A DNA stretch of 64,000 bases, taken from NCBI GenBank assembly GCA_041600715.1, contig JBFIJM010000001.1:448387-512386 (forward strand), written 5' to 3'. The DNA comes from Candidatus Saccharimonadales bacterium. Lineage in GTDB: Bacteria > Patescibacteriota > Saccharimonadia > Saccharimonadales > 2-12-FULL-41-12. Positions 22,969 to 61,741 of the stretch are shown here, piece by piece. Position numbers and translations under genes: made by a program. Position 1 is the first letter of the stretch. Each line of letters begins with the position of its first letter. A model generated the notes under the pieces. It ran no database searches, was not told the DNA's origin, and saw nothing but the letters and a program-made list of their open reading frames with translations.

Positions 22969-23043
22969 GGCCTCATCGTCTAACGGTTAGGACACCAGGT
23001 TTTCATCCTGGCAATCGGGGTTCGATTCCCCGTGAGGTCACCA
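22969..23043 (+). tRNA. tRNA-Glu (anticodon TTC), CCA encoded
   Basis: Manual cloverleaf: GGCCTCA/TGAGGTC acceptor, anticodon stem CCAGG/CCTGG with loop TTTTCAT, T arm CGGGG-TTCGATT-CCCCG. Confidence 0.9.
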
Positions 23044-23357: not shown

Positions 23358-24122
23358 TTATATCCTACTCAGACGCCGAGTAAATAAGTGGTGACCAGCT
23401 GTCGCAAGAGTGACAGTACTAGCAAAAAGTACAAAGACTCCTCCCGCACCAGCTTCCGGCAGTACACTCGGCTGGGATGACTGCGATGACGGACTTGTTC
23501 TATCTGTAGGTTTTATTGGTGTCGAAGGAGTGGGCGGAGGAGTTACTGGTGGGGTTACAGGAGGTTGTTCTGGTGGCGTCACTGGTGGCTGAGGACAATC
23601 TACCTTTGCTTTAAATTGGACAAATCGTTTTTCGTTAACCGATACGCCAACGTCGCCTATTGGTACCCCTGATCCACTAGTTACGTCTGAGATACCACGA
23701 ATAAACTCACTGTTTGGCCCAAGCAACTGACTACTTCCTGGAATATAAGCAATCTTTTGGGGTGTAGAGAGATTAACAGTGGCAGTGTCAGACGTATTTG
23801 ACGGACTAGCGTTGCTTGCTCTAATCACAATAGATGAAATATTTTGCGCAGATGAAGCTGTCCCAAACACTGCCTGAACTGTCACACCGGTTAAAGCCTC
23901 GTCTGGCCCAGGATTATGTATTCGTACTTTATATTGCAGAATATCGCATTTATCAGCCAAGGCTGGGTCACTAAAATCGGTACCTTTTGTAACATTACGA
24001 ACCCTATAGATATCTCCACCCTCTGCATATGGCGCCGCAAAAGTCTGTGCCGGCATAGCGGTAATTAACACTGCCAGCCCGAGGACCGCCATAAAACTTT
24101 TGATTGATGCTTGGACCCTCAT
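23358..24122 (-). CDS. LPXTG-type cell-wall-anchored surface protein (254 aa)
   Basis: Signal peptide; beta-rich domain; PPVTPP-rich stalk; C-terminal sorting signal LPEAG plus hydrophobic stretch plus RRLSRI. Confidence 0.8.
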   Translation of the reverse strand: MRVQASIKSFMAVLGLAVLITAMPAQTFAAPYAEGGDIYRVRNVTKGTDFSDPALADKCDILQYKVRIHNPGPDEALTGVTVQAVFGTASSAQNISSIVIRASNASPSNTSDTATVNLSTPQKIAYIPGSSQLLGPNSEFIRGISDVTSGSGVPIGDVGVSVNEKRFVQFKAKVDCPQPPVTPPEQPPVTPPVTPPPTPSTPIKPTDRTSPSSQSSQPSVLPEAGAGGVFVLFASTVTLATAGHHLFTRRLSRI

Positions 24123-24145
24123 TTTATTCTCCTTTACTTCATCTG

Positions 24146-25498
24146 TTAAAACTGATCAGCTAAAACTGGAAATGTGTCCTGTACAATCACGTCTGTTGAG
24201 TTATCTGATGTTCGTTTACTATTGACTATAGTTACTCCATCGAGCAATTCTGCCGAGGCAACTACACTTCCTGGACTTGACGGTGCCTTCACTTGTACGC
24301 ACCTAGTAGTTGCAGACTCGGCATAAACATCGCTTGTAACCTGCCCTATAGCATTGCCATTATTATCACGGAGTCTAAAATTGCGCGCTGTAACTTGATC
24401 GCCGTCAGGATCATAGAGGTTTTTAACGCAAATCTTCCCTATGCCATTGACATACATATGCTGTGGAACCACCATTTCTCCTTGCGGGGGAGAATTCCTT
24501 TCTGGGGTAGGCTGAGGCGAAGGACTAGGACCTGGACTCGGCTGAGGCGTTGGTGATGGTGACGGCGAAGGAGCAGGAGCAGGGCTTATTGTGCTAGATT
24601 CTGAACAGTATGCACTAGCTAACGCTATAGCCTTTGACCGTGCTTCACCACTAGCTTTTAGACTTCCGTTAGATTTCAAAGAACTAATGCGTGATCTAAG
24701 CTTTTTCAACCCGCTTTTTAGGTTCATAGTGGCTTTTGCGTAACCCTCACCTCTCCCATAACCAAAAGCAGAAGTTCCAGCGGTTCTACACTCTGCTCTT
24801 GCCGTGGCTTCAGACCTGGCTACCACGCTTAAATGAGCCTTCCGGTAGTCGTTAACCCAAAATACTTTGCCCCTAATAGCGTGTTTTGGCATCTTTAAAC
24901 GAGCTGCGTTACCGCACGCTTTTCTATACCATTGCCAACCTTTGGATGTTTTAATCTTACAAAAAACAGATCTCCTGGTATCCCTGCCATAAGGTCTGCC
25001 GGATTCTTGGCGACCCTGAGTCCATATATTTACTTTTTTGCCATCAATCACTCTGCAACGATTCTGTTTTTCAGCGCTCTTTAGCCTTTGAGTAGATACT
25101 GTACGGTAATTGCCTAGCACGGTGGCCTTGCTGATAGTTTCTTCAGAAGCTTTACTACCAGCAATCCTGAACTCGAACTTGTTGTTTAGGCTAGTGATCT
25201 CTGTCGATGGTTGCTGAGCTTCCGCCTTCTCGGTATTAATAGACCCTTTTACAGCCGAACTTAGGGCTAAAGTCGCCACACCGATAGTCATAAGCCGTGT
25301 AGCACGATTATGTTTAATGTCATCAAATAATGACGAGGTACCCTGTTCTCCGATATCGCTTGGCGGTATTTGATGACCAGCAAAATCTCTGGAGGAAATA
25401 TCCTGGTTATAGGGAGGTTGTATAGTCTCCTCAAGCCCGATGTCAGGCATAGCCATTGTTTCTAGCGTTCTTGTCATGGTCGACCCCTTCTCGGACAC
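24146..25498 (-). CDS. Single-pass membrane protein with Cys/Arg/Lys-rich ectodomain, PS-rich linker and C-terminal beta domain (450 aa)
   Basis: TM helix LMTIGVATLALSSAV; linker PAPAPSPSPSPTPQPSPGPSPSPQP. Start uncertain (several early Met). 23-nt gap to the downstream LPXTG gene. Confidence 0.65.
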   Translation of the reverse strand: MSEKGSTMTRTLETMAMPDIGLEETIQPPYNQDISSRDFAGHQIPPSDIGEQGTSSLFDDIKHNRATRLMTIGVATLALSSAVKGSINTEKAEAQQPSTEITSLNNKFEFRIAGSKASEETISKATVLGNYRTVSTQRLKSAEKQNRCRVIDGKKVNIWTQGRQESGRPYGRDTRRSVFCKIKTSKGWQWYRKACGNAARLKMPKHAIRGKVFWVNDYRKAHLSVVARSEATARAECRTAGTSAFGYGRGEGYAKATMNLKSGLKKLRSRISSLKSNGSLKASGEARSKAIALASAYCSESSTISPAPAPSPSPSPTPQPSPGPSPSPQPTPERNSPPQGEMVVPQHMYVNGIGKICVKNLYDPDGDQVTARNFRLRDNNGNAIGQVTSDVYAESATTRCVQVKAPSSPGSVVASAELLDGVTIVNSKRTSDNSTDVIVQDTFPVLADQF

Positions 25499-25616
25499 AC
25501 CGAGTTTACTCTAGTTTTCTCCACCAAATAACAAAATATATTCTCGTATCAGGAACGTTCTGTGCCTAAAGAGACTACTTTAGTTACTGTTGCAGATCTA
25601 AATGTACTCCCAATGC

Positions 25617-25654
25617 AAACTGCCCACTGTGAATTAATTTACAGTGGGCAGTTT
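25617..25654. terminator. Perfect 14-bp hairpin (bidirectional terminator) after the 544-aa LPXTG gene
   Basis: AAACTGCCCACTGT - gaattaattt - ACAGTGGGCAGTTT, flanked by A/T runs. Confidence 0.75.
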
Positions 25655-25690
25655 TTAGAGCGATCAGTCAGTGATATGTCTAATGTTGTT

Positions 25691-27304
25691 TTAGGCGACT
25701 GAACGTCGGGCTACAACATAGTAGTAAGCCATAGTACTCGCAGTTGTTACTGCTAAGAACGTAAGTACTGCACTTCCAGCACCTGTCTCAGGCAATTTAC
25801 CTGGGGTTGTTGATACAGGAGTAGTTGGAGTTCCAGGAGTCGTAAATGTAATTGATGTAGCACACTGGTTTCCATCTACTATGAATGTCTCGTTATCTAC
25901 TGCGATCTGAACTTTGAGTCGAGTAGCATACTGACCATCACGTGCATATGTATGCTCAACAACTCTCTGGTCAGTAACGAATTCTTCGCTACCATCACCG
26001 TAGTTAAAGATATAACGCTGGATAGTTGCACCATTGATAGCACTTGCGTTAGCGGTAAATCGTATTTTTCGCCCGCCAATTTTTTCTGCTGTTAATGAGT
26101 CACAGCTATATTCTGGAGTTATGTCTTCATCGCAATCTTCACGAGTGATAACCACGTCTGCAGTATCTCTTACTTCAGTAGGTGTTTGCTTAGAACGAGC
26201 TAGTGCAATATTTCGCACTCGCTTCTGACATTCCTCAAAATCGCCAGATACTGTAGTGTCGAAGATTACGTATCGTCCGCCACCCGAGTTATAAGTCCCG
26301 AGACCTATACCGCCGTTACTGAATACCGGCGCATCTGCTTGTACTCGATCGCCATTCTCATCAATAACTCTTACTGAGCCGTTAACTAAACTTACATGAG
26401 GAGGAAGAACATCGCGTACTGCAACCTCATCTATAGTATCAAGGCCAAGGTTTTTGGTAGAAAGTAGCCATTGAACTCGATCACCTGGCTTTGTCTGAAC
26501 TTCTCGCTTCCAGTCTGTTTCACCAGCTTTTCTTACTTCTTTTACAAGTTGAAGTTCATTGCTTTGTTCTGGGGTAATTTTCAATCGTAACTCGACAACA
26601 CCTTCGTACTCGAAACAGCCAGGAAGGTTACCGTTGAGTGAATCCCATCCGATCTGAGTACCACCGCTAACAATAGAGTCGCTAAGTTGTACTCCGCCAG
26701 CAAATGGCCCGTTGTTATAGAAGGTAGCTGAACCTGGAACGAATTGAACATTGAAAGGTCGGCTAGCGGTCATATCAACTGAGTCAACCACTTCTCTTGG
26801 AGTAGCATTGTCAGCAGTGATTGAAGCTACTGCACGAAGTGCGCTACCTGTGTTTGTTGGTAGCTCTACGCTTACTCGTGTGTTCTTGGCAACACCAAGT
26901 CCACTTGCATTGGTTGTTTGGTTTGCATTGTTGTGAACATACATTCGCAATACAACTTCTTTAGTACCTTCAGTAACATCTGTTACTACATCATATGCAA
27001 CACCTGGCTGATCAGCACGACGGCCGTCAAAGAAGGCTCGTTCGTCTCCGTAACCTGGAGTATTAACAAATGAGTTAAATACAGGACCATTTAATGAGCC
27101 ACAGCGACCATTCTGTGCGCCTGGATCGTTAGGGTCGTTACAGTTACTACTATCGCTACCTTTATTGTAGTCAAATGTTGGCCTATCAGCTGGGAAGAAC
27201 CCTGCGCTTACTGCGAACGGAGCAACGGCTATGCCGACTACCGCTACTGCAACCGCCAACTTAGCCTTACTGCTAAGAGAACGGATTTTATTTAAAATAT
27301 TCAT
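25691..27304 (-). CDS. LPXTG-anchored surface protein with PKD domain
   Basis: Start set to ATG 27304 (MNILNKIRS), which has a GGAGA Shine-Dalgarno 8 nt upstream. Signal peptide; domain homologous to the 254-aa protein; PKD-like IRFTANAS...YIFNYGDGS...HTYARDGQY; C-terminal LPETG plus hydrophobic stretch plus RRSVA. Confidence 0.85.
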   Translation of the reverse strand: MNILNKIRSLSSKAKLAVAVAVVGIAVAPFAVSAGFFPADRPTFDYNKGSDSSNCNDPNDPGAQNGRCGSLNGPVFNSFVNTPGYGDERAFFDGRRADQPGVAYDVVTDVTEGTKEVVLRMYVHNNANQTTNASGLGVAKNTRVSVELPTNTGSALRAVASITADNATPREVVDSVDMTASRPFNVQFVPGSATFYNNGPFAGGVQLSDSIVSGGTQIGWDSLNGNLPGCFEYEGVVELRLKITPEQSNELQLVKEVRKAGETDWKREVQTKPGDRVQWLLSTKNLGLDTIDEVAVRDVLPPHVSLVNGSVRVIDENGDRVQADAPVFSNGGIGLGTYNSGGGRYVIFDTTVSGDFEECQKRVRNIALARSKQTPTEVRDTADVVITREDCDEDITPEYSCDSLTAEKIGGRKIRFTANASAINGATIQRYIFNYGDGSEEFVTDQRVVEHTYARDGQYATRLKVQIAVDNETFIVDGNQCATSITFTTPGTPTTPVSTTPGKLPETGAGSAVLTFLAVTTASTMAYYYVVARRSVA

Positions 27305-27333
27305 AGTAATTTCTCCTCTATTCATTTCTTAGA

Positions 27334-28890
27334 TTAAGGCTTCGCTGGTAGCGTTGTTGCTGGTTTATTGATAGTTTCAGGATCTGCGTTAATTGCAGGC
27401 TCAGGTAATACAGGAACAGGATTTGAATCTGCAGGACCTTGAGTTTCTGGTGTGTGAGGATCAGCAGTGACTAGTGCTGGCTTAGGAGTCTGTCCTTGTT
27501 TAGGAACTTCTATTGGAGAACTACCGGCTTGTGGACGAACCGCATCACCAGTACCGCCTGCGCTAGGAGCTTTGTTGGGGCCTGGTATTTTGCCGTCGCT
27601 TGTTTTAGGGGGCTTAACAGGTGGTTTTTCTGGAGCTGGACGCTCTGTTTCGTTCTCGCCTGGTTTTGGCTGTGTCGGCTGAACAGGTTTTTCTGGAGCT
27701 GGATTCTCTATTTTATTCTTGCCTGGTGTAGGAGTTTCTGTGGTAGTAGTTGTAGGAGGAGTTACTCTTTCTCCACCGCCTGGCTGAGATACTTTTGGAG
27801 TTGGAGCTTTACGGATAAGGTTAAGGCAGATTTTGCCATCACTATCTTTTGTTACTTTCCACATAAGGGTACCCATTCCTTTTACTTCACGAACAAGCAC
27901 TGTTTCACCGTCGAAGTACTCTAGCTGTTCGTTTATTTCTCCACCATCTTCCATGTATCCGTTATAAACATATCCGGTATAAGACTTCTCGTAGTTCTTA
28001 GCGTTATCGGCTGTCATGAACTTAGCATTAAAAGCTTCTTGCTCTTTAGCTGACATGCCAGTTTCTGCATTGATCGATCGATTATTCTTAGTATTAAAGT
28101 TAATCGATGCTTTTCCGTATTGGTTACCTTCAGTAGTGTCACTGAACATAGCAAGACCAACTGCTGTAAGCTTCTTGTTAATACCAGTACCTTCTGCAGA
28201 CATAGCGTTCATCTTGTTATGAATATTATTTAATTCAAGATTAATATTGCCATTTGCATAGTGCTTAAGAACTTCTGCGCGTCTGTCGCTAGAGTCAATA
28301 TTTAAGCTCTTTACTGCGCTAGCAACGTTGCTTGAATTACCAATAGTTATTTTTTGCTTCTGTGTTGTTGAAGCAGAAGGGTCATTTTCTTTACTCTTAG
28401 TAGTTGGGCTAGGAACTGCACCAAGACTTGTCTGAGCACCAAACTGTGATTGTTGCACTGTACTCTGATTACTCTTACTATTATCATTATTTGTTTGAGC
28501 AGAATTAGCTGGTGTGCCAACACGCTCAACAGTTCTGTCACCAAACGGGCTCCAAACTGCAACTGCAGAAAGAGCCACAGCGACACCGCCAAGTACTTTG
28601 TTAAGACGGCGTGATCTACGTAGCTTATCTTTTAGATGAGTAGACTCGCTCTCTAGTTGAGCAACTTCACCTGTCAAAGAACCAACACGCTTTCTTAATT
28701 CGTTATTATTTTCATTTGATGTTGCGATCTGTTCTTTCATATCTACAAGTTGCTCAGCAACCGGCTCAGCAGTACCACCGTCAACAAGCTTCTGCACATC
28801 AATATTACGCTTCATCGCCAACGCTTCATCACGCATCTCTGGTGTTTCTGCTGGACGACCTTGGTTTGGGTCTTGGTTTGGATTAGTCAT
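27334..28890 (-). CDS. Single-pass membrane protein with N-terminal coiled coil and Pro-rich C-terminal tail (518 aa)
   Basis: Cytoplasmic coiled coil; TM VLGGVAVALSAVAVW; ectodomain; tail with repeated PAPEKP units. 8-nt gap to the downstream LPXTG gene. Confidence 0.7.
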   Translation of the reverse strand: MTNPNQDPNQGRPAETPEMRDEALAMKRNIDVQKLVDGGTAEPVAEQLVDMKEQIATSNENNNELRKRVGSLTGEVAQLESESTHLKDKLRRSRRLNKVLGGVAVALSAVAVWSPFGDRTVERVGTPANSAQTNNDNSKSNQSTVQQSQFGAQTSLGAVPSPTTKSKENDPSASTTQKQKITIGNSSNVASAVKSLNIDSSDRRAEVLKHYANGNINLELNNIHNKMNAMSAEGTGINKKLTAVGLAMFSDTTEGNQYGKASINFNTKNNRSINAETGMSAKEQEAFNAKFMTADNAKNYEKSYTGYVYNGYMEDGGEINEQLEYFDGETVLVREVKGMGTLMWKVTKDSDGKICLNLIRKAPTPKVSQPGGGERVTPPTTTTTETPTPGKNKIENPAPEKPVQPTQPKPGENETERPAPEKPPVKPPKTSDGKIPGPNKAPSAGGTGDAVRPQAGSSPIEVPKQGQTPKPALVTADPHTPETQGPADSNPVPVLPEPAINADPETINKPATTLPAKP

Positions 28891-29088
28891 CGTAGTTTAT
28901 TCCTCCCCTAGAAATCTCTAGGATCTTAGTTCCTTATTCCCACACCTCTTGTGCTTTACAGCTCAAAATGTGTTCTAGGTACAATATATCACAACAGTTC
29001 TATATTGTCAAGTATATTGAATACTAATAGTTATTAGCATTTTGCAATAATTTGACGTAAAGATGAGCTAAGTAAATTAACCATCACT

Positions 29089-30516
29089 CTAAGATGTTGG
29101 TTCAGGTTGCGAATCTGGTACTGCAAGGTTCTTTTTACTAAATGAAAAGCCGAATGTACTTCCTCTGCCTTCTTCGCTTTCAAATAACAAATTACCCCCT
29201 TGAGCAGTAATGACCTTTTTAGCCATAAATAAGCCTAACCCGGTACCATCAGGACGAGCTTTTCTAGCATTTCTTGCTCTATAAAATTTAGTGAATAGCC
29301 TCTTTTGCTCGTCTGCTGGGACACCTAGTCCATTATCTTTAACTCTAAAATATATGTGGTTCTTATCCGAGGTTAAATTGATATCTATCCTACCTCCGCT
29401 TGGAGTGTAATACATAGCGTTATCTATAAAATTCATTATGACTTGTCTAAGCTTAGTCTCGTCTATCATAAGCTTAGGGAAATCCTTAGGTTTATCATAT
29501 GACAGTGTCAGACTCTTGATCTTAGCTTGTTCAGTAAGTTGCTTTACTTCACCCTCTACAACATCTGCCAGATTAGTAGGATGCGCGTCAATTATAAATT
29601 TACCTGTCTTAAGTCGTGAGACATTAAGAAGATCTGCTATCAGATAAACCATACGCTGTGAACTAACAAATGCCTGATCTAGAAGTTTTCGTTGCGTATC
29701 TGTTACATCACCGGCGTCGCCCTCTATTACCATACTCAAATAACCCTTAACACTAGTAAGTGGTGTTCTAAGTTGATGAGAAGCCATACTAATGAATTCG
29801 TCTTTAGTCTCGTCCATTGATTTCAGTTTTTCATTAGTTTTTTGGAGTTTTCTCAAAACATACTGATTTTCTTCGAAGAGTAGACTGTTTTCAATCGCTA
29901 TGCCAACGGCCTCACAAAGACGCGTTACTGCCTCGCGCTGTTTTTCGGTTATATGAGCCGAATCTTCAATAAACCCTGCGACTAGAACACCAACTATTCG
30001 GTGACGAGCCAGAAGCTTTACGACCATTACAGACTTTAGCGGGCTCATCTCTCTTAGAGACGCAACCTTAGCAGGACCGATATTAATAACGCTAGCGAGT
30101 GTCTCGTCTGACAAGGCAGAGATGTCGATTATTCTATTAACTTCTGGACTCACAATCCAAGGATGGTGATCATCTAGAGTCACTTGATAATTGATTTTGC
30201 TTAAAGACTCGAGCGTACTAGAAAACCCCAGTAGCTCAAGTTTATCTTTCCTAGCAGGAATAGCCATTATGCCCACTGTTGATATATTAGAGTTATCAAT
30301 TATTGTTTTCGCTATAGCCTGACATAGTTTATCAAGTTTGTTGTGAGATTCTAGAACAAGCTTATCAATATTCCTTAATAACTGTAGCGTCTGATTAGTT
30401 TCAGCTAATTCAAGATTGCGCTTGTACATATCCTCAGTTGCCTGGGCATATAACGCTTTGAGATTCTTTTTACGGCCAAAAATACTTCGATTTTTGGATG
30501 AGTTAGTATTTTCCAC
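29089..30516 (-). CDS. Soluble sensor histidine kinase (GAF-like N-terminal region + HisKA + HATPase_c)
   Basis: H-box MASHQLRTPLTSVKGY; N-box NFIDNAMYYTP; G1 VKDNGLGV; G2 GTGLGLFMAKK. No TM helix. Confidence 0.88.
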   Translation of the reverse strand: MENTNSSKNRSIFGRKKNLKALYAQATEDMYKRNLELAETNQTLQLLRNIDKLVLESHNKLDKLCQAIAKTIIDNSNISTVGIMAIPARKDKLELLGFSSTLESLSKINYQVTLDDHHPWIVSPEVNRIIDISALSDETLASVINIGPAKVASLREMSPLKSVMVVKLLARHRIVGVLVAGFIEDSAHITEKQREAVTRLCEAVGIAIENSLLFEENQYVLRKLQKTNEKLKSMDETKDEFISMASHQLRTPLTSVKGYLSMVIEGDAGDVTDTQRKLLDQAFVSSQRMVYLIADLLNVSRLKTGKFIIDAHPTNLADVVEGEVKQLTEQAKIKSLTLSYDKPKDFPKLMIDETKLRQVIMNFIDNAMYYTPSGGRIDINLTSDKNHIYFRVKDNGLGVPADEQKRLFTKFYRARNARKARPDGTGLGLFMAKKVITAQGGNLLFESEEGRGSTFGFSFSKKNLAVPDSQPEPTS

Positions 30517-30529
30517 CTGTTCCCATTAC

Positions 30530-30814
30530 CTAACTAAGTAATTTAGGTATTTGTTCTGGCTGTAGCTCAGACAGGTACCGCGACGCAGAATCTTTGCATG
30601 CCTGAACTGCAATTTCTCCGAATAGCTCGCGGTATTGCTCGACAAGACTATCGATAGCTTGAGCACCATTTCCGGCTATATCTACATTATGCTTTGACCA
30701 ATCGATCGTTAACCCATTCACTAATTCTGCTTGATCAATAGCGATCGGGCCAATGATCTGTTCTTGTTGCAAAATAATAGCTTCTGCAATCTGGTTGTAA
30801 ACCTCTTGATCCAT
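30530..30814 (-). CDS. Small acidic hypothetical protein (94 aa)
   Basis: Intact ORF, 2-nt gap from the upstream membrane gene and 13 nt from the kinase gene. Confidence 0.55.
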   Translation of the reverse strand: MDQEVYNQIAEAIILQQEQIIGPIAIDQAELVNGLTIDWSKHNVDIAGNGAQAIDSLVEQYRELFGEIAVQACKDSASRYLSELQPEQIPKLLS

Positions 30815-30816
30815 AT

Positions 30817-31638
30817 TTATTTAGAGCTCCTGGACTTGAGCCTAAATGCAACAGTTCCAATACTTACCATAGCTAGTACCATTACGAAATATGACAGCTG
30901 ATAAATCAAGTCGGTAAAACCTCCTGTAACCCATTGATCACGAGAAAAACGGTATAAGAACGCAAAGTCCGCAATATATTGAATTACCAAAGCGCAAAGA
31001 AGCAAGAGAACCTTAGTACGCATGACACCCCCAAGAGCTTTGAAGGACAGAAGGTAGATCATGAGAGCGAGCGATATATAGACTGCTTGACCAAGAGGAT
31101 AGCCAAAGTCTAGAAAAGCAACAACCCAGTTACCCCCACCTTCGTAGCCGTTTAGGAATACATAGTAAGAGCACCCAAGTAGAAGCGCAGGAACTACCAA
31201 ACTTAACAGTTTTACTCCAGAAGAAAGAGCTGACAATTTAATACCCAAAGCTTTTTTAAGCTGTATTAGCCCAAGAATATAAAAGATGATACTACCAAAG
31301 AAACCAACATCCCCAAGCGATGGATAAGGAGCTTCTACTCCTTTGACAAAAGCAAAATAAGAATAGGTGACCTGTCCAAATACTTGGGCAACCAAACCTA
31401 AGCTCAAAAATATGAGCGATCTCCCAAAGAGACTTTTTACACCGCCCCAGCGTCTTGAAACAAACAAACCTATGACTGCGCCAACTAGCGCAATAACCCA
31501 GTATGAATCGCTGTACAATTCAAAGGACTTGGCTTCAGGATCTAGGAAAAGATTATTGTAGAGCCACCATCCAGCAAAACCTATTGAAAGTAAGGTAGCA
31601 GTAATGAGTGATAATTTTTCAGGATTATTTTGTTTCAT
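30817..31638 (-). CDS. Polytopic membrane protein (about 8 TM, 273 aa), possible sensor module
   Basis: Hydrophobicity pattern. First gene of the three-gene string ending in the kinase. Confidence 0.6.
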   Translation of the reverse strand: MKQNNPEKLSLITATLLSIGFAGWWLYNNLFLDPEAKSFELYSDSYWVIALVGAVIGLFVSRRWGGVKSLFGRSLIFLSLGLVAQVFGQVTYSYFAFVKGVEAPYPSLGDVGFFGSIIFYILGLIQLKKALGIKLSALSSGVKLLSLVVPALLLGCSYYVFLNGYEGGGNWVVAFLDFGYPLGQAVYISLALMIYLLSFKALGGVMRTKVLLLLCALVIQYIADFAFLYRFSRDQWVTGGFTDLIYQLSYFVMVLAMVSIGTVAFRLKSRSSK

Positions 31639-53254: not shown

Positions 53255-55102
53255 ATGCTTATGATTTGCTGTATACTAATGCCAAGTATGCGTATATCTG
53301 ATAGTCTGGTGGAACAATTACTCCGTGACGCGCAAAAGGTCACTGAGGATCAGTTAGTGAGCCTGCGTGATCAGGAAAAGACAGAAAAAAAGCCGTTACA
53401 AGATCTAGTGGTTCGTAACGGCATTATCAACGAAAAAGATCTCACGAAACTTTATTCTGAAGCTATCGATATCCCCTATATAGAGCTAAACGCTAAGGAA
53501 ATTCCGAGAGAAATATTACGTCTCATCCCTGAAAGAATTGCCCGTCAATATAAAGTTATATTGTTTTCAGTAGAGGACGACGGCTCAAAACTTCTAGCCA
53601 TGGAAGATCCTGACGATATTCAGGCGCTCAACTTCCTACAAAAACAACTAGGAACCGACATTAAGGTACACGTTACAACCAGTAGCAACATATCTTCCGG
53701 TCTCGATCAGTACAGAGGCAGTTCTGCTACCGAGCTTACTAAGGTTCTTGACTCAGAGGTCGACAATGAGGAAGCTGATGACGGTATAAGTGATGAAGAT
53801 ATTGCAGAAGATTCTCCAATCGCACAGACAGTGAATTTAGTGATTGAATACGCCATAAAATCTGGCGCCAGTGATATCCATATAGAGCCACGCGAAGATC
53901 ATGTACTAGTTCGCTACCGTGTGGACGGTATTCTTAAAGAAGCAAACAAACTGCCTAAAAAAGTTCATAACGCCTTAGTAAGTAGAATTAAAATATTAAG
54001 TAACCTAAAGATTGATGAACGTAGAGCTCCGCAAGACGGCAGGTTCAAGATACAAGTTGGTGAGGGTGTGTTCGCACTACGAGTATCTACCCTTCCTATC
54101 AACGAAGGCGAAAAAGTCGTTATGCGTATTCTTAATGAATCAAGTAAGGCAATTACTCTCGAGGAGCTAGGCTATTGGGGACCATCGCTAAACACTATTA
54201 ACCAAGCGATTGTCCAGCCTCACGGGATGATACTAGTGACAGGCCCTACAGGTTCTGGTAAATCAACGAGTTTATTCAGCGTGCTCAGCTCGCTCAATAA
54301 ACCCTCCGTAAATATTTCTACTGTAGAAGATCCGGTCGAGTACCGCATACCAGGTGCTAATCAGACACAAGTAAACCCTAAGGCAGGCATGACGTTTGTC
54401 AATGGCCTCCGTGCATTACTCAGGCAAGATCCTAACATCATCATGGTAGGAGAAATCCGTGACAGCGAGACGTCTGGTTTAGCTGTGCAGGCGGCACTAA
54501 CAGGACATTTAGTCTTTGCCACACTACATACAAATAACGCAGCTACCTGTCTTCCACGATTGCTGGACATGGGCATTGAACCGTTTCTCATCGCTTCTAC
54601 TGTTCGGGCAGTTGTTGGCCAACGATTAGTTAGGCGACTATGTGTTGACTGCCGTGAGTCTTACACGCCAGATGAAGCCGACCTCAAGCGCCTAGATGCC
54701 ATATTCCATGTCAGCGATCTGGCTCACATGAAAGCTATTCACCATCTAGAAGAAGTTGCTCTAAAAGGAGGTATCGGAAAGAGTAATACTAGTAAGATTA
54801 ATAAAGCTGATACCGCTAATCTATCTACCACCGAAACCAAAATTAACTCGCTATGGAAACCAAAGAAAAATGGTTGTGATGCATGTAGTCACACAGGATA
54901 CAAAGGACGCATTGGTATATACGAAGTGCTCGGTAACTCTGAGTCAGTCCAGCACCAAATAGTTGGCAATGCTACAAGTGACGAAATTCAAAAACAAGCA
55001 ATTGATGATGGTATGGTAACTATGCAAATGGACGGATTCATAAAAGCCCTTCGTGGCCAAACTAGCATAGAAGAAATCTTACGCGTGACCTCTGAGGATT
55101 AA
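53255..55102 (+). CDS. pilB: Type IV pilus assembly ATPase PilB/GspE family
   Basis: Walker A GPTGSGKST, Asp box, Walker B IIMVGEIRD, His box, tetracysteine CVDC...CDAC. The true start is probably internal (ATG 53279 or 53288). Confidence 0.9.
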   Translation: MLMICCILMPSMRISDSLVEQLLRDAQKVTEDQLVSLRDQEKTEKKPLQDLVVRNGIINEKDLTKLYSEAIDIPYIELNAKEIPREILRLIPERIARQYKVILFSVEDDGSKLLAMEDPDDIQALNFLQKQLGTDIKVHVTTSSNISSGLDQYRGSSATELTKVLDSEVDNEEADDGISDEDIAEDSPIAQTVNLVIEYAIKSGASDIHIEPREDHVLVRYRVDGILKEANKLPKKVHNALVSRIKILSNLKIDERRAPQDGRFKIQVGEGVFALRVSTLPINEGEKVVMRILNESSKAITLEELGYWGPSLNTINQAIVQPHGMILVTGPTGSGKSTSLFSVLSSLNKPSVNISTVEDPVEYRIPGANQTQVNPKAGMTFVNGLRALLRQDPNIIMVGEIRDSETSGLAVQAALTGHLVFATLHTNNAATCLPRLLDMGIEPFLIASTVRAVVGQRLVRRLCVDCRESYTPDEADLKRLDAIFHVSDLAHMKAIHHLEEVALKGGIGKSNTSKINKADTANLSTTETKINSLWKPKKNGCDACSHTGYKGRIGIYEVLGNSESVQHQIVGNATSDEIQKQAIDDGMVTMQMDGFIKALRGQTSIEEILRVTSED

Positions 55103-55106
55103 AAAC

Positions 55107-56312
55107 ATGGCTCAATTCATATATACAGCATCCAGAAACGGCAAAACAATAAAGGGCACTATAACTGCCAGTACCAAGGAAGTGGCACAAGCTACCCTTG
55201 AGCGACAAGGCATTAGACCAATAGTCCTAAAACAGTCGTCAGCCAAACAAAAGAAGTTACGAGGCAAGGTAAAAGGCAAAGATATAGTCGTATTCACCCG
55301 TCAGTTATCTACTATGATTTCTGCTGGAGTGCCCCTCAACCGATGCTTCGCTACGCTTCAGGAGCAAACCACTAACAAATACTTTAAAGAAGTAATAAGC
55401 ATTATCGCCCATGACATAGAGGGTGGAAGTGCTCTTGCTGACGCACTCGGGAAACACCCTAACGTTTTTAGTGACGTATACGTTAACATGGTTCGAGCCG
55501 GTGAGTCTGGGGGTATTCTAGAAGAAATTCTCAAGCGTATCGCAACTCAGGTAGAAAAAGATGCTTCAATCCGGAAAAAAATAAAGAGTGCGTCTACCTA
55601 TCCGACAGTTGTTTTTGGAATCACTATTTTAGCCTTTTTCGGCATTATGATTGCGGTAATTCCTAGGCTTGGAAAAATAATTAAAGATCTTGGCGGTGAA
55701 GACGCAAGACTCCCTATATATACAGAAGTTATGTTATCCATGAGTGAATTTATGCAAAAAAACGCAATATTTATTGCAGTAGCAACATTCCTTTTTATAT
55801 ATTTGCTCCGAAGATATATAAAAACGCCAAAAGGAAAGTATCAATTCCATGCTTTACTACTGCGCACCCCTATTCTTAAAACAATTATTATAAAAATAGC
55901 CATAGCCAGGTTCTCCAGAACTTTTGCCTCACTAATGTCAGCAGGAGTGAGCGTCCTTGACGCACTAGAAGCAACGGGTGGGGCTATGGGGAATAAAGTT
56001 ATTGAAGAAGAGTTACACATGGCCGCAAAAGAAGTTAAGAACGGCAAGCAGTTGTCCGAGCCCTTATCTAAGAGTAAGTACTTCCCTGCAATTGTTAGTC
56101 AGATGCTCTCCATTGGTGAAGAAACAGGACAAGTAGATACTGTTCTTATTAAAGTAGCTGATTTTTACGAAGAAGAAGTTGATGCCGTAATTGATGGGAT
56201 TAGCTCTTTAATTGAGCCTTTGATGATCGTAGTGTTAGGCGCAATGGTAGGGGTTATCGCTGCTAGTGTTATGGGGCCAATATCATCACTAAGTAAGAAT
56301 GTTGGCAACTAG
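55107..56312 (+). CDS. pilC: Type IV pilus platform protein PilC (GspF family)
   Basis: 401 aa, duplicated T2SSF domain, three TM segments. Follows pilB by 4 nt. Confidence 0.88.
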   Translation: MAQFIYTASRNGKTIKGTITASTKEVAQATLERQGIRPIVLKQSSAKQKKLRGKVKGKDIVVFTRQLSTMISAGVPLNRCFATLQEQTTNKYFKEVISIIAHDIEGGSALADALGKHPNVFSDVYVNMVRAGESGGILEEILKRIATQVEKDASIRKKIKSASTYPTVVFGITILAFFGIMIAVIPRLGKIIKDLGGEDARLPIYTEVMLSMSEFMQKNAIFIAVATFLFIYLLRRYIKTPKGKYQFHALLLRTPILKTIIIKIAIARFSRTFASLMSAGVSVLDALEATGGAMGNKVIEEELHMAAKEVKNGKQLSEPLSKSKYFPAIVSQMLSIGEETGQVDTVLIKVADFYEEEVDAVIDGISSLIEPLMIVVLGAMVGVIAASVMGPISSLSKNVGN

Positions 56313-56439
56313 TCCACAGGTTTAAGCGAACAAAAACTTGATTTGTTAATACTTATGCTTAATAATCATTAACAGATATCCGTCATAGGAATCAGTATTA
56401 CTAAACAATAAAAGTAAAATTCAAGGAGGGTGGGTCCTT

Positions 56440-56865
56440 ATGACTTCACTACAACGTAAAGAAAAAGGTTTCACAATCATCGAACTATTGATTGTGATAG
56501 TCGTAATCGGTATTTTGGCAGCACTTGTCATTACAACATTCACAGGGATACAGCAACGTGCTCGAAACACAGAGCGTGAAACAGACATAAAGGCTCTACA
56601 CAGCCAGCTCGAGGCATACTACGCACAAAATGGAGCATATCCAGCCTTAGCTGACCTCAATACTACGACCCTAAAAGGTCTTGATGCTGGCGCACTAACC
56701 CCTCCAGGGAGTAGCACTACACCAGGTGCAAGCGCAGCTACAATCAATCAGTACCAGTACCTAACAACACCTGGAAGTTGTGACACCGCTGCAAAGACAT
56801 GTACAGCTTACGTACTAAGTGCACAAGGCGAAAATGCAACGTACAGCAAGAATAGCTTAAATTAG
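56440..56865 (+). CDS. Major type IV pilin (prepilin)
   Basis: Class III signal KG/FTIIELLIVIVVIGILAA with Glu5. Strong SD (AAGGAGGGTG). C-terminal Cys pair. Followed by a strong terminator. Confidence 0.88.
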   Translation: MTSLQRKEKGFTIIELLIVIVVIGILAALVITTFTGIQQRARNTERETDIKALHSQLEAYYAQNGAYPALADLNTTTLKGLDAGALTPPGSSTTPGASAATINQYQYLTTPGSCDTAAKTCTAYVLSAQGENATYSKNSLN

Positions 56866-56887
56866 TTTAGTTTTTTAGCAGTACTCT

Positions 56888-56917
56888 AAACCGAGGGTGT
56901 TTATCCCTCGGTTTTTT
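56888..56917 (+). terminator. Strong terminator/attenuator after the major pilin gene
   Basis: AAACCGAGGG-tgtttat-CCCTCGGTTT followed by T-run. TATAAT follows at 56921-56926. Confidence 0.8.
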
Positions 56918-56937
56918 GTTTATAATACAAATTAAGC

Positions 56938-57336
56938 ATGAGTGGTATTTTAAAGACTGAAGATGGTTTAACAATTGTTGAACTAATTGTTGCAATGATT
57001 GTAGGGACAATACTTTTAGGGTCGGTTAATGTGATTTACATGAATCAGGTATACCTATCGCAAAATGCTCGAGATCGATCACAGGCCAACGCTTATGCAG
57101 AAGGAAAAATTGAGTCACTTAGAAGCGCCGGTTATCTTCAGGTCAATAATGGAGTCACTGACATTACCTCAGAATTACCAACCGAACTTAACCCACCCCG
57201 TAATGCTAGCATGACAGTAACTAACCAAAGTAATGGGATGAAGAAAGTAGTAATTGCTATCTCATACAACAGTCAGGGCAAGAACCTACAGGAAACTTAC
57301 ACAACTTATGTCGGAGAACTAGGTGCTGGGCAATAA
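56938..57336 (+). CDS. Minor pilin-like protein (132 aa)
   Basis: Prepilin-like N-terminus DG/LTIVELIVAMIVGTILLG. Confidence 0.7.
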   Translation: MSGILKTEDGLTIVELIVAMIVGTILLGSVNVIYMNQVYLSQNARDRSQANAYAEGKIESLRSAGYLQVNNGVTDITSELPTELNPPRNASMTVTNQSNGMKKVVIAISYNSQGKNLQETYTTYVGELGAGQ

Positions 57337-57991
57337 TCAAAAAGGCTTTACCCTGGTAGAACTACTGATAACAATCAGTTTGTTCGGAATAATTTCTGTT
57401 ACATTCCTTGGGGCTATAACTATATATTTTGCGAATATTACTAGAAACAACGCAAGTATAGATATGACCGTTAACTCTCAGAATCTGCTAAGATCAACAG
57501 TTGATGAGCTTCGCTACAGTGCAGGAGTCCGCCAAACTAACACAATATCTGACCCAAACGGCCCAGGAGGCGGTTGGAATACTAGTAATAGCGCCTTTGT
57601 AATAATCATAGCTAAGCCAGCCGAAGACAGTAGTAGAAACTATATCATCAACCCCTTAACAGGGGTTCCATACATTAATGAGTTAGTTTATTTTAAGCAA
57701 GGCGCTACTCTATATAGAAGAACTCTTGCCAATAGTAGTGCTCCCGATAACTCAAGCCGTACTACCTGCCCCGCTACAAGCGCTTCAGCATCGTGTCCGG
57801 CTGACAGTAAGCTTATAGAATATCTTGATGATATGGTTTTCACGCTTTACGATCAAGATGATGCACCAACTACAAATACAGCTCTGGCGAGATCTGTGAA
57901 AATTGATTTATTTATGAAGCGTGACACTTTCGGTGATCCACTACTTCTCCAGAATAATATTCGTGTCACTTTAAGGAATAACTACCCGTGA
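57323..57991 (+). CDS. Minor pilin-like protein (222 aa)
   Basis: Prepilin N-terminus KG/FTLVELLITISLFG. 14-nt overlap with the upstream gene. Confidence 0.72.
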   Translation: MLGNNQKGFTLVELLITISLFGIISVTFLGAITIYFANITRNNASIDMTVNSQNLLRSTVDELRYSAGVRQTNTISDPNGPGGGWNTSNSAFVIIIAKPAEDSSRNYIINPLTGVPYINELVYFKQGATLYRRTLANSSAPDNSSRTTCPATSASASCPADSKLIEYLDDMVFTLYDQDDAPTTNTALARSVKIDLFMKRDTFGDPLLLQNNIRVTLRNNYP

Positions 57992-59361
57992 ATAATTTGA
58001 AATCGATAAAACTTAATCAAAGAGGTGGAGTTCTTCTCGCCATAGTGATAATGCTACCGTTTTTGATAATGATCGTAGCTTCATACACCGAACTGACGAT
58101 ATCGAGTATTCAGTTGTCCAGAAAAGACCAGTTAAGAACACACGCTCAACTTGCAGCCGATGGGGGTGTAGATAAAGCTGTGTGGCAAATAAACCAAACG
58201 AATACGTGGACAGGTACGGCAGGGCAAATTGAAGTGCAGAATGTCAATAATGTCAGAACGACCTACGATATAACAGTTAATAGCGTAAGTAGCACCCAAA
58301 AAGTCATTACATCGATAGGAAGGTCATACCAAGGAGCGAGCACTAACCCTAGCTCATCGGTTAAAGTTGAAGTAAAATTACGCGCTATCCAAACAGGAGA
58401 TTATAGTGTGGTCACTGGTGTTGGTGGGCTTATAATGCAAAATAGCTCTAAAATCATCAATGGAAGTGTGTATGTAAATGGCACATTATCATTGTCTAAT
58501 TCGGCACAAATTGGCTCTGAGAGTATCGTTCCTGTAAACGTGAAGGTAGCCCACCAGGCATGTCCTAATCCAGCTAATGCGACCTTTCCAAGAGTATGTA
58601 ACTCTGGCGAGAATGGACAGCCTATAAGCATTTCTAACCCTGCGCACATTTACGGTAAAGTAGAAGCTACCAACCAGACTAACGGATCGGGTATGTCGAA
58701 TACCGGTTTAGTACCAGGTAGTTCTGTTCCTCCAGTAGCCCTACCTACATACGACCGAACACCACACAAAAATGCAGTAGCATCGCAAATGTCAGGAAGC
58801 TCCGCAGAGTGCTCATCACAGCCAACCAAAACTTGGCCAGCAAATCTAAAAATAAACGGCGATGTCGATATATCAGGGAACTGCACCATCACACTTGAAG
58901 GTAATGTTTGGATTACAGGTAGCTTAACAATGAGAAATTCGGGCCAGCTTGTTGTTAAAGAGAATCTTGAGACACCACCAGTTGTCATGATTGATGGGCA
59001 GAGCGGAGTACGAATGCGCAATGGTTCTGCAATGAACCCTAACTCAGATGGTAAGGGAATGCGCGTTATTACCTTTGCTAGCACAGCTTCCTGCACTCCA
59101 GAATGTGTAGATGTTACTGGGGTAGACTTAAAAAACAGTCAGTCACTCTTAACTGTAAACATTGACAATGTCTCAAGTGCTCCACGGACCGAATTTTATG
59201 CGAGGTGGTCTAAGTTAAGTGCCGGAAACTCAGGTAGCGTGGGTGCACTCGCAGGCCAAACTGTTGAGCTTAGAAATAGCCTAGCTATCACATTAGGAAC
59301 AAGTATCACCGGTTTTGGGGATCAAATCTGGTTGATTGACAACTACAGAAGAACCTTCTAG
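57988..59361 (+). CDS. PilX-N-like large pilus-associated protein (457 aa)
   Basis: N-terminus QRGGVLLAIVIMLPFLIMIV resembles the PilX N-terminal anchor. Large beta-rich ectodomain. 4-nt overlap upstream. Confidence 0.6.
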   Translation: MNNLKSIKLNQRGGVLLAIVIMLPFLIMIVASYTELTISSIQLSRKDQLRTHAQLAADGGVDKAVWQINQTNTWTGTAGQIEVQNVNNVRTTYDITVNSVSSTQKVITSIGRSYQGASTNPSSSVKVEVKLRAIQTGDYSVVTGVGGLIMQNSSKIINGSVYVNGTLSLSNSAQIGSESIVPVNVKVAHQACPNPANATFPRVCNSGENGQPISISNPAHIYGKVEATNQTNGSGMSNTGLVPGSSVPPVALPTYDRTPHKNAVASQMSGSSAECSSQPTKTWPANLKINGDVDISGNCTITLEGNVWITGSLTMRNSGQLVVKENLETPPVVMIDGQSGVRMRNGSAMNPNSDGKGMRVITFASTASCTPECVDVTGVDLKNSQSLLTVNIDNVSSAPRTEFYARWSKLSAGNSGSVGALAGQTVELRNSLAITLGTSITGFGDQIWLIDNYRRTF

Positions 59362-59427
59362 CAATTTCGCTTATGGTATATACTTGTATCCAGATATCTA
59401 TAGAGTACAAATAGTAAATAGGGTGGC

Positions 59428-60492
59428 ATGAATTCTAAGTTTTTTTATCACGATAAACCAGTTTTTGGTCTTGACATTGGCTTCAGTACCATAAAAGTCA
59501 TGCAAGTTGAGCCTCGTGGCAAAAATTATCATATCGCTGGATACGGAGTTGGTGGCTTCGATAGCTCTGCAATTAAAGATGGAGTGATTGTTGACCACGA
59601 GTCTATTGCAGAAGCGACAAAGCATTTGTTTGACCACAATATAGTGGGAGAAATTAACACAAGACGCGTCGCTCTAGCCATCCCAGCATCGCGTACTTAT
59701 ACAAGAACAATCACCTTGCCAATAGTGGAAGATGAAGAAATCAACGAAGCAGTCCGCATGGAAGCAGAGCAGTACATTCCGATGCCAATCGAAGAACTAT
59801 ATCTTGATTACACGATTATATCCAAGGATAAAGAAGGTATGGAAATCCTCGCCGTCGCTGCCCCTCGTAAAATTGTTGATTCACAAATAGAACTTACCAG
59901 AATTCTCGGGTTAGAGACTGTTGGTGTCGATACAAGTATTCTTGCTGCTACCAGATTGTTCGAACGACAAAATGAACATGAAGATATACCTGCGGTATTG
60001 ATAGATTTTGGCTCTGTTTCAGCCGACATTACTGTCCATGACAAGACTGTCATCGTTACCGGTACAATTCCCCAGGGTGGCGATACATTTACAGAACTTA
60101 TTGCTAAAAAACTGAAAGTTTCCGCCGAGGAAGCTCACGTCATAAAGTCTAAATATGGTATAGGTATAAGTAAGAAGCAAGCCGAAATATTAGAGGTAGT
60201 AGGGCCTCCTATCGAACAGCTCACTAAAGAAATTAGACGCATGATCCGTTATCACGAAGAACGGTCTGGGTCAGAACAAAAGATAGGTCAAATTATCACT
60301 ATGGGTGGCGGAGCAAACATGCCAGGTCTTAGCGAACTTTTAACAGACACTATTCGCTTGCCAGTACGAACCTGTGAGCCATGGCACAACTTAAAGCTAG
60401 GTAATCTTAAGTCCCCTAATTCTTATGAGAGGTCATTGTACGTTACGGTAGCTGGGCTGTCTCTGATAAATTCCAAGGAGTTATTCACATGA
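59428..60492 (+). CDS. pilM: Type IV pilus assembly protein PilM (actin-like ATPase fold)
   Basis: 354 aa. GLDIGFSTIKV phosphate-1 motif, LIDFGSVSADI, GGGANMPGL. Confidence 0.85.
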   Translation: MNSKFFYHDKPVFGLDIGFSTIKVMQVEPRGKNYHIAGYGVGGFDSSAIKDGVIVDHESIAEATKHLFDHNIVGEINTRRVALAIPASRTYTRTITLPIVEDEEINEAVRMEAEQYIPMPIEELYLDYTIISKDKEGMEILAVAAPRKIVDSQIELTRILGLETVGVDTSILAATRLFERQNEHEDIPAVLIDFGSVSADITVHDKTVIVTGTIPQGGDTFTELIAKKLKVSAEEAHVIKSKYGIGISKKQAEILEVVGPPIEQLTKEIRRMIRYHEERSGSEQKIGQIITMGGGANMPGLSELLTDTIRLPVRTCEPWHNLKLGNLKSPNSYERSLYVTVAGLSLINSKELFT

Positions 60493-61100
60493 TAAACCTA
60501 CTCCCCACTCAGGTTAAAGAAGACTTCCAGTATGCGCACCGCAACACCAAACTATCCGGATGGGCTACTGCCCTGTTGGTTGCTTTATTTGGGGCGTTAT
60601 TAATCACTATTGTTGGATTTTTATACCTAGAGAGGTCTATCAGTAACCAACGTCAAGCAGTAGAAGTCGCTAGATCTAACCTCAACGCCAAGGAACTTGT
60701 GGAAACACAAAAGAAAGTAGAAGAAATATCCACCAACACTAAGCTAGCTACTCAAGTACTTTCCAAGGAAGTACTATTCTCTGACCTATTACGGCAACTG
60801 GGCGCAACATTGCCTGCGAATACAGCTTTAACTCAATTAAAGATAGACCAAGTACAGGGAGGTATCACCCTGACTGCTACTGCTTCTGACATCACGTCAG
60901 CTACTCAGATTCAGGTTAACCTTCAAGATCCGACAAATAAAATATTTGAAAAGGCAGACATAGAAAGTATTGATTGCACCGAACCAACGCCAGATCAACT
61001 ATATCCATGCACAGTACAGATACGAGCATTATTCGCAAAAGACAATCCATTCCTTTACATCACGCCGACCCTGCCTATAACACAAGGAGCCACGCCATGA
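60489..61100 (+). CDS. pilN: PilN-like bitopic pilus assembly protein
   Basis: MINLLP start typical of PilN, single TM, 4-nt overlap with pilM. Confidence 0.75.
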   Translation: MINLLPTQVKEDFQYAHRNTKLSGWATALLVALFGALLITIVGFLYLERSISNQRQAVEVARSNLNAKELVETQKKVEEISTNTKLATQVLSKEVLFSDLLRQLGATLPANTALTQLKIDQVQGGITLTATASDITSATQIQVNLQDPTNKIFEKADIESIDCTEPTPDQLYPCTVQIRALFAKDNPFLYITPTLPITQGATP

Positions 61101-61741
61101 CCTCAAAGCGCGTATTTTATATTATGATCGCTTGTATAGCTATACTATCTATCGCGATTGCTAGTTCTGCGTACGGTGGCAGTCAGCTGATAGGCAGTCA
61201 AGGCAGAAAATTATCTAACCTCAAGGCAGAGAGCGCATCTATTGAGACCCAGCAGGCATCATTAGTGCGGGCTAAAAAAGATATTCAGCAGTATGACGAG
61301 CTTAACACCATCACTAAATCTATAGTCCCTCAGGACAAAGACCAGGCTAGAACAGTACGAGAAATTACAAAAATTGCTAACGAAAGTGGTATTGAGTTAA
61401 AGACCATAGCTTTTCAAAATTCCAATCTCGGACAAACACCAACGCCTGCGCCAAAACCAGAAGCAAACTCTGATGACAAAACCAAACAACCAACTTCGCC
61501 TGCAGTGCCAACTATAAGCCAAGTAGTGCCAGTAGAGGGAATCCCTGGGGTATTCAGTTTACCTATAACAATAAGCACCCCTGATGATGCTCCAGTTTCA
61601 TACCAAAACTTCCTGGATTTTCTGCAAAGACTTGAATCCAACCGACGAACTGCTCATGTTGACCAGATTTCTATTACACCGAGTGGTGGGGGTAGGAAAC
61701 TAACATTTACATTAACCTTAAACGCATACGTAAAACCATGA
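61097..61741 (+). CDS. pilO: PilO-like bitopic pilus assembly protein
   Basis: Start trimmed to ATG 61097 (ATGA overlap with the pilN stop). TM plus coiled coil plus C-terminal domain. Confidence 0.6.
   Translation: MTSKRVFYIMIACIAILSIAIASSAYGGSQLIGSQGRKLSNLKAESASIETQQASLVRAKKDIQQYDELNTITKSIVPQDKDQARTVREITKIANESGIELKTIAFQNSNLGQTPTPAPKPEANSDDKTKQPTSPAVPTISQVVPVEGIPGVFSLPITISTPDDAPVSYQNFLDFLQRLESNRRTAHVDQISITPSGGGRKLTFTLTLNAYVKP

Follow-up and report, generated by a model that had tools for sequence, protein, structure and literature searches.

A two-gene surface cassette conserved in Saccharimonadia combines a small LPXTG-type protein with an unannotated family of predicted exported partners

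The csc gene clusters of Lactobacillus, Enterococcus and Listeria encode CscA (DUF916), CscB and CscC (WxL) and CscD, a small LPXTG protein which is proposed to anchor the WxL and DUF916 partners to the cell wall (Siezen et al., 2006, PMC1534035). A second group of wall-anchored surface proteins, the fibrillar adhesins, carries CnaA-like stalk domains of Pfam PF01345 (DUF11), recently renamed CLIPPER, which are often isopeptide-bonded (Costa et al., 2025, PMC12617251). Here we describe a locus of four minus-strand genes (TM1, LP1, TM2 and LP2) in a stretch of 64,000 nucleotides (nt) from a Candidatus Saccharimonadales bacterium (GenBank assembly GCA_041600715.1, contig JBFIJM010000001.1), which is referred to below as the window. 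All coordinates are window positions on the minus strand unless noted otherwise. TM2 and LP2 form a two-gene cassette for which the csc cluster would be the closest functional analogue. Both are conserved clusters predicted to encode exported proteins only, both have variable partners, and in both one unusually small LPXTG-anchored protein is proposed to hold the other, non-covalently bound subunits. The resemblance appears to be functional only. DUF916 or WxL domains were matched by none of the four window proteins and by none of nine partner homologues; the cassette consists of two genes while csc comprises four families; the LP2 anchor has a folded, highly conserved CLIPPER-type domain whereas CscD is an unconserved peptide of 40 to 60 residues; and the two systems belong to different phyla. 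From sequence comparison we conclude that the TM2+LP2 cassette is real, conserved and previously undescribed and that its partner family is unannotated, while the mechanism proposed below is inferred. Literature that combines Saccharibacteria or Patescibacteria with LPXTG, sortase, DUF11 or adhesin did not describe the pair.

TM2 (24146..25477, 443 aa; an alternative GTG start at 25498 gives 450 aa) is followed after 23 nt, a gap already given in an earlier note on this DNA, by LP2 (23358..24122, 254 aa). LP2-type loci were sampled by exact look-up and by a metagenome scan with conserved LP2 peptides (28 loci), and partners were searched for by jackhmmer from TM2 against all open reading frames (ORFs) of the sampled loci. 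A TM2-family ORF was found directly upstream, on the same strand, in 26 of the 28 LP2-type genes with enough upstream sequence (loci L003, L006, L007, L009, L011-L015, L019, L020, L022-L025, L028, L029, L031-L033, L035-L038, L040 and L041). L029 and L032 account for the other two genes: each of these loci has a second LP2 copy with no partner directly upstream, and the other copy retains its partner. Starting from the partner side, an LP2-type gene came next in two of two cases: P0020 comes after P0153, and 2 nt separate P0141 from its LP2-type gene. P0004, the closest relative of TM2 (59%), is encoded between an LP1 homologue and an LP2 homologue. The earlier note had proposed to look for co-occurrence of each membrane protein gene with its LPXTG gene. 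This co-occurrence was found, in both search directions, for TM2+LP2; it did not extend to TM1+LP1, which were found together only in the window genome and one relative (L001).

The usual neighbourhood of the cassette reads HisKA kinase, partner, LP, tRNA-Glu(UUC), (PK) PGK TIM. In the window the upstream neighbour is a HisKA/HATPase_c histidine kinase by Pfam match (29089..30516) and the downstream neighbour is tRNA-Glu(UUC) at 22969..23043 on the plus strand. Among 27 other loci, 14 have the tRNA gene next to the LP gene. An orthologue of the kinase lies directly upstream of the partner in L001, L006, L011, L019, L020, L031, L037, L040, L041 and L042 and beside the cassette in L029 and L032. 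Since this arrangement from the kinase to PK/PGK/TIM is conserved, the locus belongs to the vertically inherited core genome and is not a hotspot island, and TM2+LP2 is best described as a class-wide, vertically inherited two-gene cassette of Saccharimonadia. The description of the site as a tRNA-Glu hotspot had to be given up: the tRNA gene is an ancestral neighbour, and the HisKA and PK/PGK/TIM flanks are syntenic. Horizontal transfer was also considered and rejected; the GC content at the locus (0.44-0.45) is inside the window range and synteny is conserved.

The same synteny raises the question of functional coupling. The four genes could encode independent surface proteins whose adjacency is merely synteny inherited in a slowly rearranging reduced genome. 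The whole HisKA-partner-LP-tRNA-Glu-PK/PGK/TIM stretch is syntenic, as that explanation expects; the gaps of 140-360 nt seen in most loci leave space for separate promoters, and a hairpin (see below) divides the first pair from the second in the window. The main argument for coupling is that the pair is intact in at least three different, unrelated gene neighbourhoods. In L007 and L013 it lies within UvrC...MFS/DUF1801, and in L012 it is found with PaaX_M and with PGK/TIM on the upstream side. In addition, L006 duplicates the whole pair, the two genes nearly overlap in some lineages (gaps of 2, 23 and 24-27 nt), and fusions of the partner ectodomain to an LPXTG signal exist. We consider four uncoupled proteins unlikely.

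The two members of the pair evolve very differently. The LP2 domain is 40-70% identical across ~145 aa in all 21 loci compared. For the partner ectodomain, identity is 82% to the closest relative, 35% to L006 and 33% or less, or undetectable, elsewhere.

LP2 begins with a signal peptide (aa 1-29), which is followed by a single, highly conserved CLIPPER/DUF11-like domain (aa 30-178; 23589-24035), a Pro-rich stalk (aa 179-220), the motif LPEAG (23448-23462), a hydrophobic segment and an RR tail. LP1 (25691..27304, 537 aa) is longer: a signal peptide is followed by an N-extension (GFFPADRPTFDY...FNSFVNTPGYGDERAFF) and a first Ig (immunoglobulin)-type domain, a DUF11/TIGR01451 repeat, a PKD domain, LPETG, a hydrophobic stretch and an RR tail. 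The first domain (~aa 85-245; 26570-27052) is CLIPPER-like and common to LP2; the DUF11/CLIPPER repeat matched by Pfam covers aa 270-312 (26369-26497), the PKD domain aa 411-466 (25907-26074), and the sorting signal lies at 25781-25795. Both N-termini are basic then hydrophobic and contain A-x-A-like sites, VSA↓G in LP1 and TFA↓A in LP2, judged by eye and hydropathy. LP1 passes the cut-offs for TIGR01451 (28.1 bits; cut-off 24), PKD_4 (PF18911; 37.8 bits, cut-off 27, E=1.9e-9) and PKD (PF00801; 24.9 bits, cut-off 23.5), and stays below those for PF01345 (21.4 bits vs 24.6) and, with its C-terminal LPETG, hydrophobic stretch and ARRSVA, for the Gram_pos_anchor family PF00746 (19.3 bits vs 20). 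The C-terminus of LP2, LPEAG (Thr to Ala), a hydrophobic stretch and TRRLSRI, gave no PF00746 match in Pfam. The LPETG and PKD features of LP1 and the LPEAG of LP2 thus agree with the first reading of the sequence, and so does a domain shared by the two proteins: the LP2 domain is homologous to the first LP1 domain (BLASTP E=4e-5 across 81 aa). A joint LP1/LP2 alignment profile finds 180 relatives, mostly of 220-290 aa, several of which are named by JGI (Joint Genome Institute) as TIGR01451-family and/or LPXTG proteins; the named homologues are from Candidatus Saccharimonadales/Saccharibacteria. PF01345 is matched by seven of 13 LP2-type proteins (best E=5.4e-7), and both LP proteins can be assigned a DUF11/CLIPPER-type domain. 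In the DUF11 repeat of LP1, a Lys, an Asp (VRDVLP) and an Asn (VRNIA) are plausibly placed for an isopeptide bond. In LP2, N43 and K173 are invariant and the position usual for the catalytic Asp appears to have no Asp.

The sorting motifs of LP2-type relatives are LPNTG, LPTTG, LPATG, LPQTG or LPAAG. The first four are found in most other Saccharimonadia LP2 proteins, and LPAAG occurs in both LP proteins of L003 (the LP1 and LP2 homologues). The deviant LPEAG and LPAAG motifs of the window clade may reflect a different sortase specificity. Two further variants were seen. The LP2 of L041 (3456-4475) has an extra PKD-like module ahead of IPNTG, and L033 (164-1375) encodes an additional 403-aa DUF11/LPQTG protein 5' of the partner gene, an order like that of LP1, TM2 and LP2 in the window.

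These domains bring the LP proteins close to the CLIPPER/PKD fibrillar adhesins. LP1 shares with them a DUF11/TIGR01451 repeat, a PKD domain and a sortase signal, the LP2 family matches PF01345, and both groups place Ig-like stalk domains on wall-anchored proteins. The differences are that LP2 has a single domain on a Pro-rich stalk where the adhesins have long tandem repeats, that the cassette lacks a recognised adhesive head domain, and that an obligate upstream partner gene has not been described for such adhesins. A host-attachment system, with wall-anchored LPXTG proteins as host-cell binders and the upstream gene products as their membrane partners, was the function suggested at first. 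PKD and CLIPPER are characteristic stalk domains of adhesins, Saccharibacteria live as epibionts, Southlakia has several essential adhesins (PMC10633639), and the partner family is variable as expected for a specificity determinant. However, few parts of the locus are as conserved as LP2 in lineages from soil, groundwater and sludge, whose hosts presumably differ; the partner is more likely a secreted than a membrane protein; and no adhesin head domain was recognised, the Foldseek matches being generic Ig-like ones only. The adhesin explanation in this form is unlikely in our view. The class-wide identity of 40-70% argues against LP2 as a host-specific binder; the variability of the partner would fit such a role.

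The partner family was delimited by a full HMMER search of 1.84 billion representatives, which returned 127 clusters (defined at 50% identity) at E<=1e-3 and 76 at E<=1e-10. It has no match in Pfam, NCBIfam, PADLOC or PDB sequences beyond Pro-rich low-complexity and coiled-coil noise. We define the TM2-type partner family as exported proteins with a beta-rich ectodomain, five near-invariant cysteines and an invariant C-x-N, whose genes immediately precede a CLIPPER-type LP gene; TM2 belongs to it. TM2 starts with an unstructured pre-sequence of 61 aa, followed by an A/G-rich hydrophobic segment (aa 62-76), the conserved A85-x-A87, a beta-rich ectodomain with a long hairpin and a 30-residue helix (aa 91-292; 24602-25207), a Pro-rich linker (aa 297-331) and a C-terminal Ig/PKD-like domain (aa 332-443) ending in FPVLADQF. 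An AlphaFold2 model built on a 67-sequence alignment has a mean pLDDT (predicted local distance difference test score) of 79, with values above 90 across aa 91-240 and 331-410. In the model the N-terminus is disordered (aa 1-82), a beta-rich domain spans aa 91-210, the hairpin aa 215-252 and the helix aa 257-286, and the Pro-rich linker leads to a beta-sandwich (aa 332-439). In a Foldseek search of PDB and BFVD only this sandwich was matched, by generic Ig/PKD-like structures (ColH PKD 4jgu, ZirS and InvE); the ectodomain fold found no match among the solved structures.

Among 127 partner representatives, 52 have the ectodomain and the C-terminal domain, 46 the ectodomain only, 20 the C-terminal domain only, and nine neither. 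In P0181, P0168 and P0177 the ectodomain is fused in cis to an LPNTG or LPDTG sorting signal and is preceded by a short classical signal peptide. We read these three proteins as a one-gene version of the two-gene arrangement. Exported proteins consisting only of the partner C-terminal Ig-like domain are encoded 3' of LP2 in L019 (4666-5583), L020 (4487-5326, with two copies of the domain) and L025 (4677-5129); no LPXTG gene follows them.

TM2 had been classified as a single-pass membrane protein. This is doubtful, as its hydrophobic segment consists of ~15 A/G-rich residues and is followed by the conserved A85-x-A87 ahead of the fold. Throughout the family the segment comes past a pre-sequence with a median length of 43 residues, and six of 67 relatives carry short classical signal peptides. 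A85 (82%), A87 (94%) and P90 (81%) are conserved directly ahead of the fold start at aa 91, which indicates cleavage by signal peptidase. From the A-x-A site just before the folded domain and the relatives with classical signal peptides, TM2 is probably secreted rather than membrane-anchored. In many partners the pre-sequence ends in [IL]-[RK]-x-[ST]-R-x-G-[RNK] just before the A/G-rich stretch (TM2 aa 50-76 and homologues). The distance from Ile to Gly is similar to that in the YSIRK-G/S signal-peptide motif found in surface proteins of Gram-positive bacteria; this is speculative, and Pfam gave no YSIRK match.

Five cysteines are near-invariant in the family (C141, C173, C188, C230 and C291) and N190 is invariant (window ~24605-25057); TM2 itself carries all six residues. 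The total number of Cys per partner is typically seven, or five in minimal forms, both odd. One partner sequence was seen to be without both C141 and C173. The joint loss suggests that these two form a pair, which would leave one of C188, C230 and C291 unpaired. The family alignment shows no conserved His alongside the invariant Cys, and for this reason a thiol enzyme of the sortase, L,D-transpeptidase or NlpC/P60 type was considered unlikely. The unmatched fold, the odd number of conserved Cys and the invariant Cys-x-Asn prompt a more adventurous reading, which we rate as a long shot: the ectodomain would be a reactive module, able for instance to attach by a covalent or disulfide bond to LP2, to itself or to a target on the host surface, and together with LP2 would make a Saccharimonadia-specific host-contact device, perhaps reporting to the seven-transmembrane histidine kinase.

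Our preferred model, to which we give an even chance, is a two-part envelope complex in which LP2 is a conserved wall-anchored docking subunit for the variable secreted partner. LP2 would be exported, and its LPEAG would be cut by a sortase encoded elsewhere. The protein would then be joined to peptidoglycan, with the Pro-rich stalk presenting the single conserved CLIPPER-type Ig domain at the wall surface. The partner would be exported via its unusually long pre-sequence and probably released by signal peptidase at A85-x-A87, after which either the beta-rich, cysteine-bearing ectodomain or the C-terminal Ig-like domain may dock on LP2. LP2 would thus be the invariant wall anchor and the fast-evolving partner the variable, outward-facing subunit. 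The anchor role of LP2 is supported by the LPXTG fusions in cis and by the lack of any other retention signal in the members with classical signal peptides. The complex could be a structural envelope element or a contact/attachment device, between which the data do not discriminate.

Several points weigh against the docking model. The interaction between TM2 and LP2 is deduced from gene-level evidence. Most partner-LP2 gaps (140-360 nt) are so wide that co-translation cannot be general, and the adjacency could in part be due to the slow reshuffling of a reduced genome. Not all Saccharibacteria have the pair, since the Southlakia epibionticum locus next to PK/TIM is without the cassette. On the partner side, cleavage at A-x-A is itself inferred, the site lies ~11 residues past the hydrophobic stretch, farther than usual, and the long pre-sequence is kept at the protein level between close relatives, which also fits a functional cytoplasmic tail of a membrane-anchored protein. 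On the anchor side, the window LP2 scores below every Pfam threshold and its LPEAG departs from canonical LPXTG. As in the earlier note, no sortase was found nearby: by a crude test, the TLxTC motif is present in no ORF of at least 90 aa in the window. Another Saccharibacterium, Southlakia, has two sortases.

The sortase result also bears on a pilus or fibre assembled by sortase, with the LP proteins as pilin subunits and the upstream protein as tip or base. Gram-positive pili are built from isopeptide-type CnaA-like domains that carry LPXTG signals, and pilus loci likewise encode LPXTG proteins with CnaA-like folds beside accessory surface proteins. They differ from the locus described here, where no pilus-specific sortase was found in the window and none in the flanks of seven related loci with Pfam annotation, the LP2 alignment shows no YPKN-type pilin motif, and the partner normally lacks a typical sorting signal. 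A sortase-assembled pilus is highly improbable on these grounds.

A signalling function may be considered as well, given the kinase next to the cassette. Extracellular accessory proteins such as YycH and YycI are known to tune a cell-wall kinase, WalK, and the pair could be an envelope-signalling accessory module of the adjacent histidine kinase in the same manner. The kinase is upstream of or beside the cassette in the loci listed above and a response regulator is nearby. On the other hand, the pair also occurs without the kinase in L007, L012 and L013, two other genes separate kinase and pair at the P0153 locus, and the partner has no relation in sequence or fold to known kinase accessory proteins. 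The adjacency allows a signalling link; an accessory module of the kinase as the function of the pair is improbable in our estimate. The kinase region itself (29089-31638) appears to be divided into three ORFs in the window: a multi-pass membrane protein (30817-31638), a 94-aa protein (30530-30814) and the soluble HisKA/HATPase_c kinase. The same three-ORF layout is seen in L029 and L032; in L006 and at the P0153 locus there is one protein of 721-726 aa with HisKA_7TM, HisKA and HATPase_c.

The upstream pair of the window, TM1 and LP1, is of a different kind. TM1 (27334..28890, 518 aa) has an N-terminal coiled-coil-like cytoplasmic part (aa 44-99), a hydrophobic segment (aa 99-117), an S/T/N/Q-rich linker, a conserved globular region (about aa 180-362) and a Pro-rich tail of ~155 aa. 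It has no family in Pfam, NCBIfam or PADLOC. Its sole homologue among 5.8 billion proteins is P0002 (48% identity), encoded on contig L001 between the same kinase and an LP1 orthologue. A short segment of similarity between TM1 and TM2 had been pointed out, and homology of the two was rejected because the comparisons gave no statistical support: the best BLASTP E value was 1.3, full-length hhalign returned a probability of 1.5%, hhalign of the TM1 globular region against 67 TM2-family sequences returned 0.6%, and the TM2-family hidden Markov model (HMM), run with filters off, gave negative bits on TM1. By hhalign and HMM, TM1 is outside the TM2-type partner family. The only Cys of TM1, C355 in K-I-C-L-N, has an Asn two residues on, as in the invariant C188-x-N190 motif of TM2-type partners, which we note as a lead only.

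LP1 belongs to a second LP type, which in other loci comes after a short partner of the TM2 family. L006 has two homologous modules in tandem, a long partner with an LP2-type gene and then a short partner with an LP1-type gene; the short partner lacks the C-terminal domain and its LP1-type gene has the GFFPxxRxTY N-extension. The short partner P0134 (L043) is likewise followed, ~33 nt later, by a gene starting with this N-extension (LP1-type). In L003, the gene preceding the LP1 homologue is visible only in its last 22 codons. TM1+LP1 is thus best read as a lineage-specific variant in which the unrelated orphan TM1 occupies the place of the short partner. A duplicated module had been proposed for the window. 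By these comparisons true tandem duplication of homologous modules exists at the class level (L006), while the two partners in the window are not homologous. In L001 (3855-4266) tRNA-Glu comes directly after TM1+LP1 and TM2+LP2 is absent from the site. Module number and content between the kinase and tRNA-Glu thus vary among close lineages.

The four minus-strand ORFs were found at the coordinates first given for them, and public assemblies of the same genome, among them a 771-kb NCBI contig, call products of 518, 537, 443 and 254 aa. A Shine-Dalgarno-like purine run lies 5' of each gene. For LP1 a longer ORF of 544 aa starts at 27325. The AGGAG ribosome-binding site of LP1 falls within this longer version, making 27304 the likely start. 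The gap between TM1 and LP1 is then 29 nt; the value of 8 nt noted earlier applies to the 544-aa ORF. A promoter-like site (TTGACA-17-TATATT, TG-extended, 11/12 consensus matches) is located at 28983..29011, within the 198-nt gap between the kinase stop and the TM1 start, and was assigned by consensus match only. A 14-bp hairpin (25617..25654) begins 36 nt past the LP1 stop and is followed by UUUGC. Its folding energy is -27 kcal/mol (z = -6.3), and none of 200 shuffled sequences was as stable; the U-tract is weak and the hairpin is not among the sites listed by a separate consensus scan. It is probably an intrinsic terminator that splits the locus into two transcription units, as the promoter-like site 5' of TM1 and the hairpin after LP1 together suggest. 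At some distance from the locus, the window contains a run of plus-strand genes (53255-62052) with pilin-like N-termini, e.g., GFTIIELLIVIVV and GFTLVELLITISL, after genes for 615-aa and 401-aa proteins; from the ORF list only, it resembles a type IV pilus cluster.

Saccharibacteria live attached to other bacteria, and to our knowledge little is known of their envelope parts beyond type IV pili and a few adhesins of one oral model organism. This work defines a two-gene surface cassette in the core genome of the class Saccharimonadia, a partner family outside Pfam and NCBIfam with a confidently predicted fold and no solved relative, and a concrete model, inferred in its mechanism, of a conserved wall anchor holding a variable secreted subunit. 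Should the partner determine the binding target of the cell, its diversity might follow host range; a structural complex would be a marker of the Saccharimonadia envelope.

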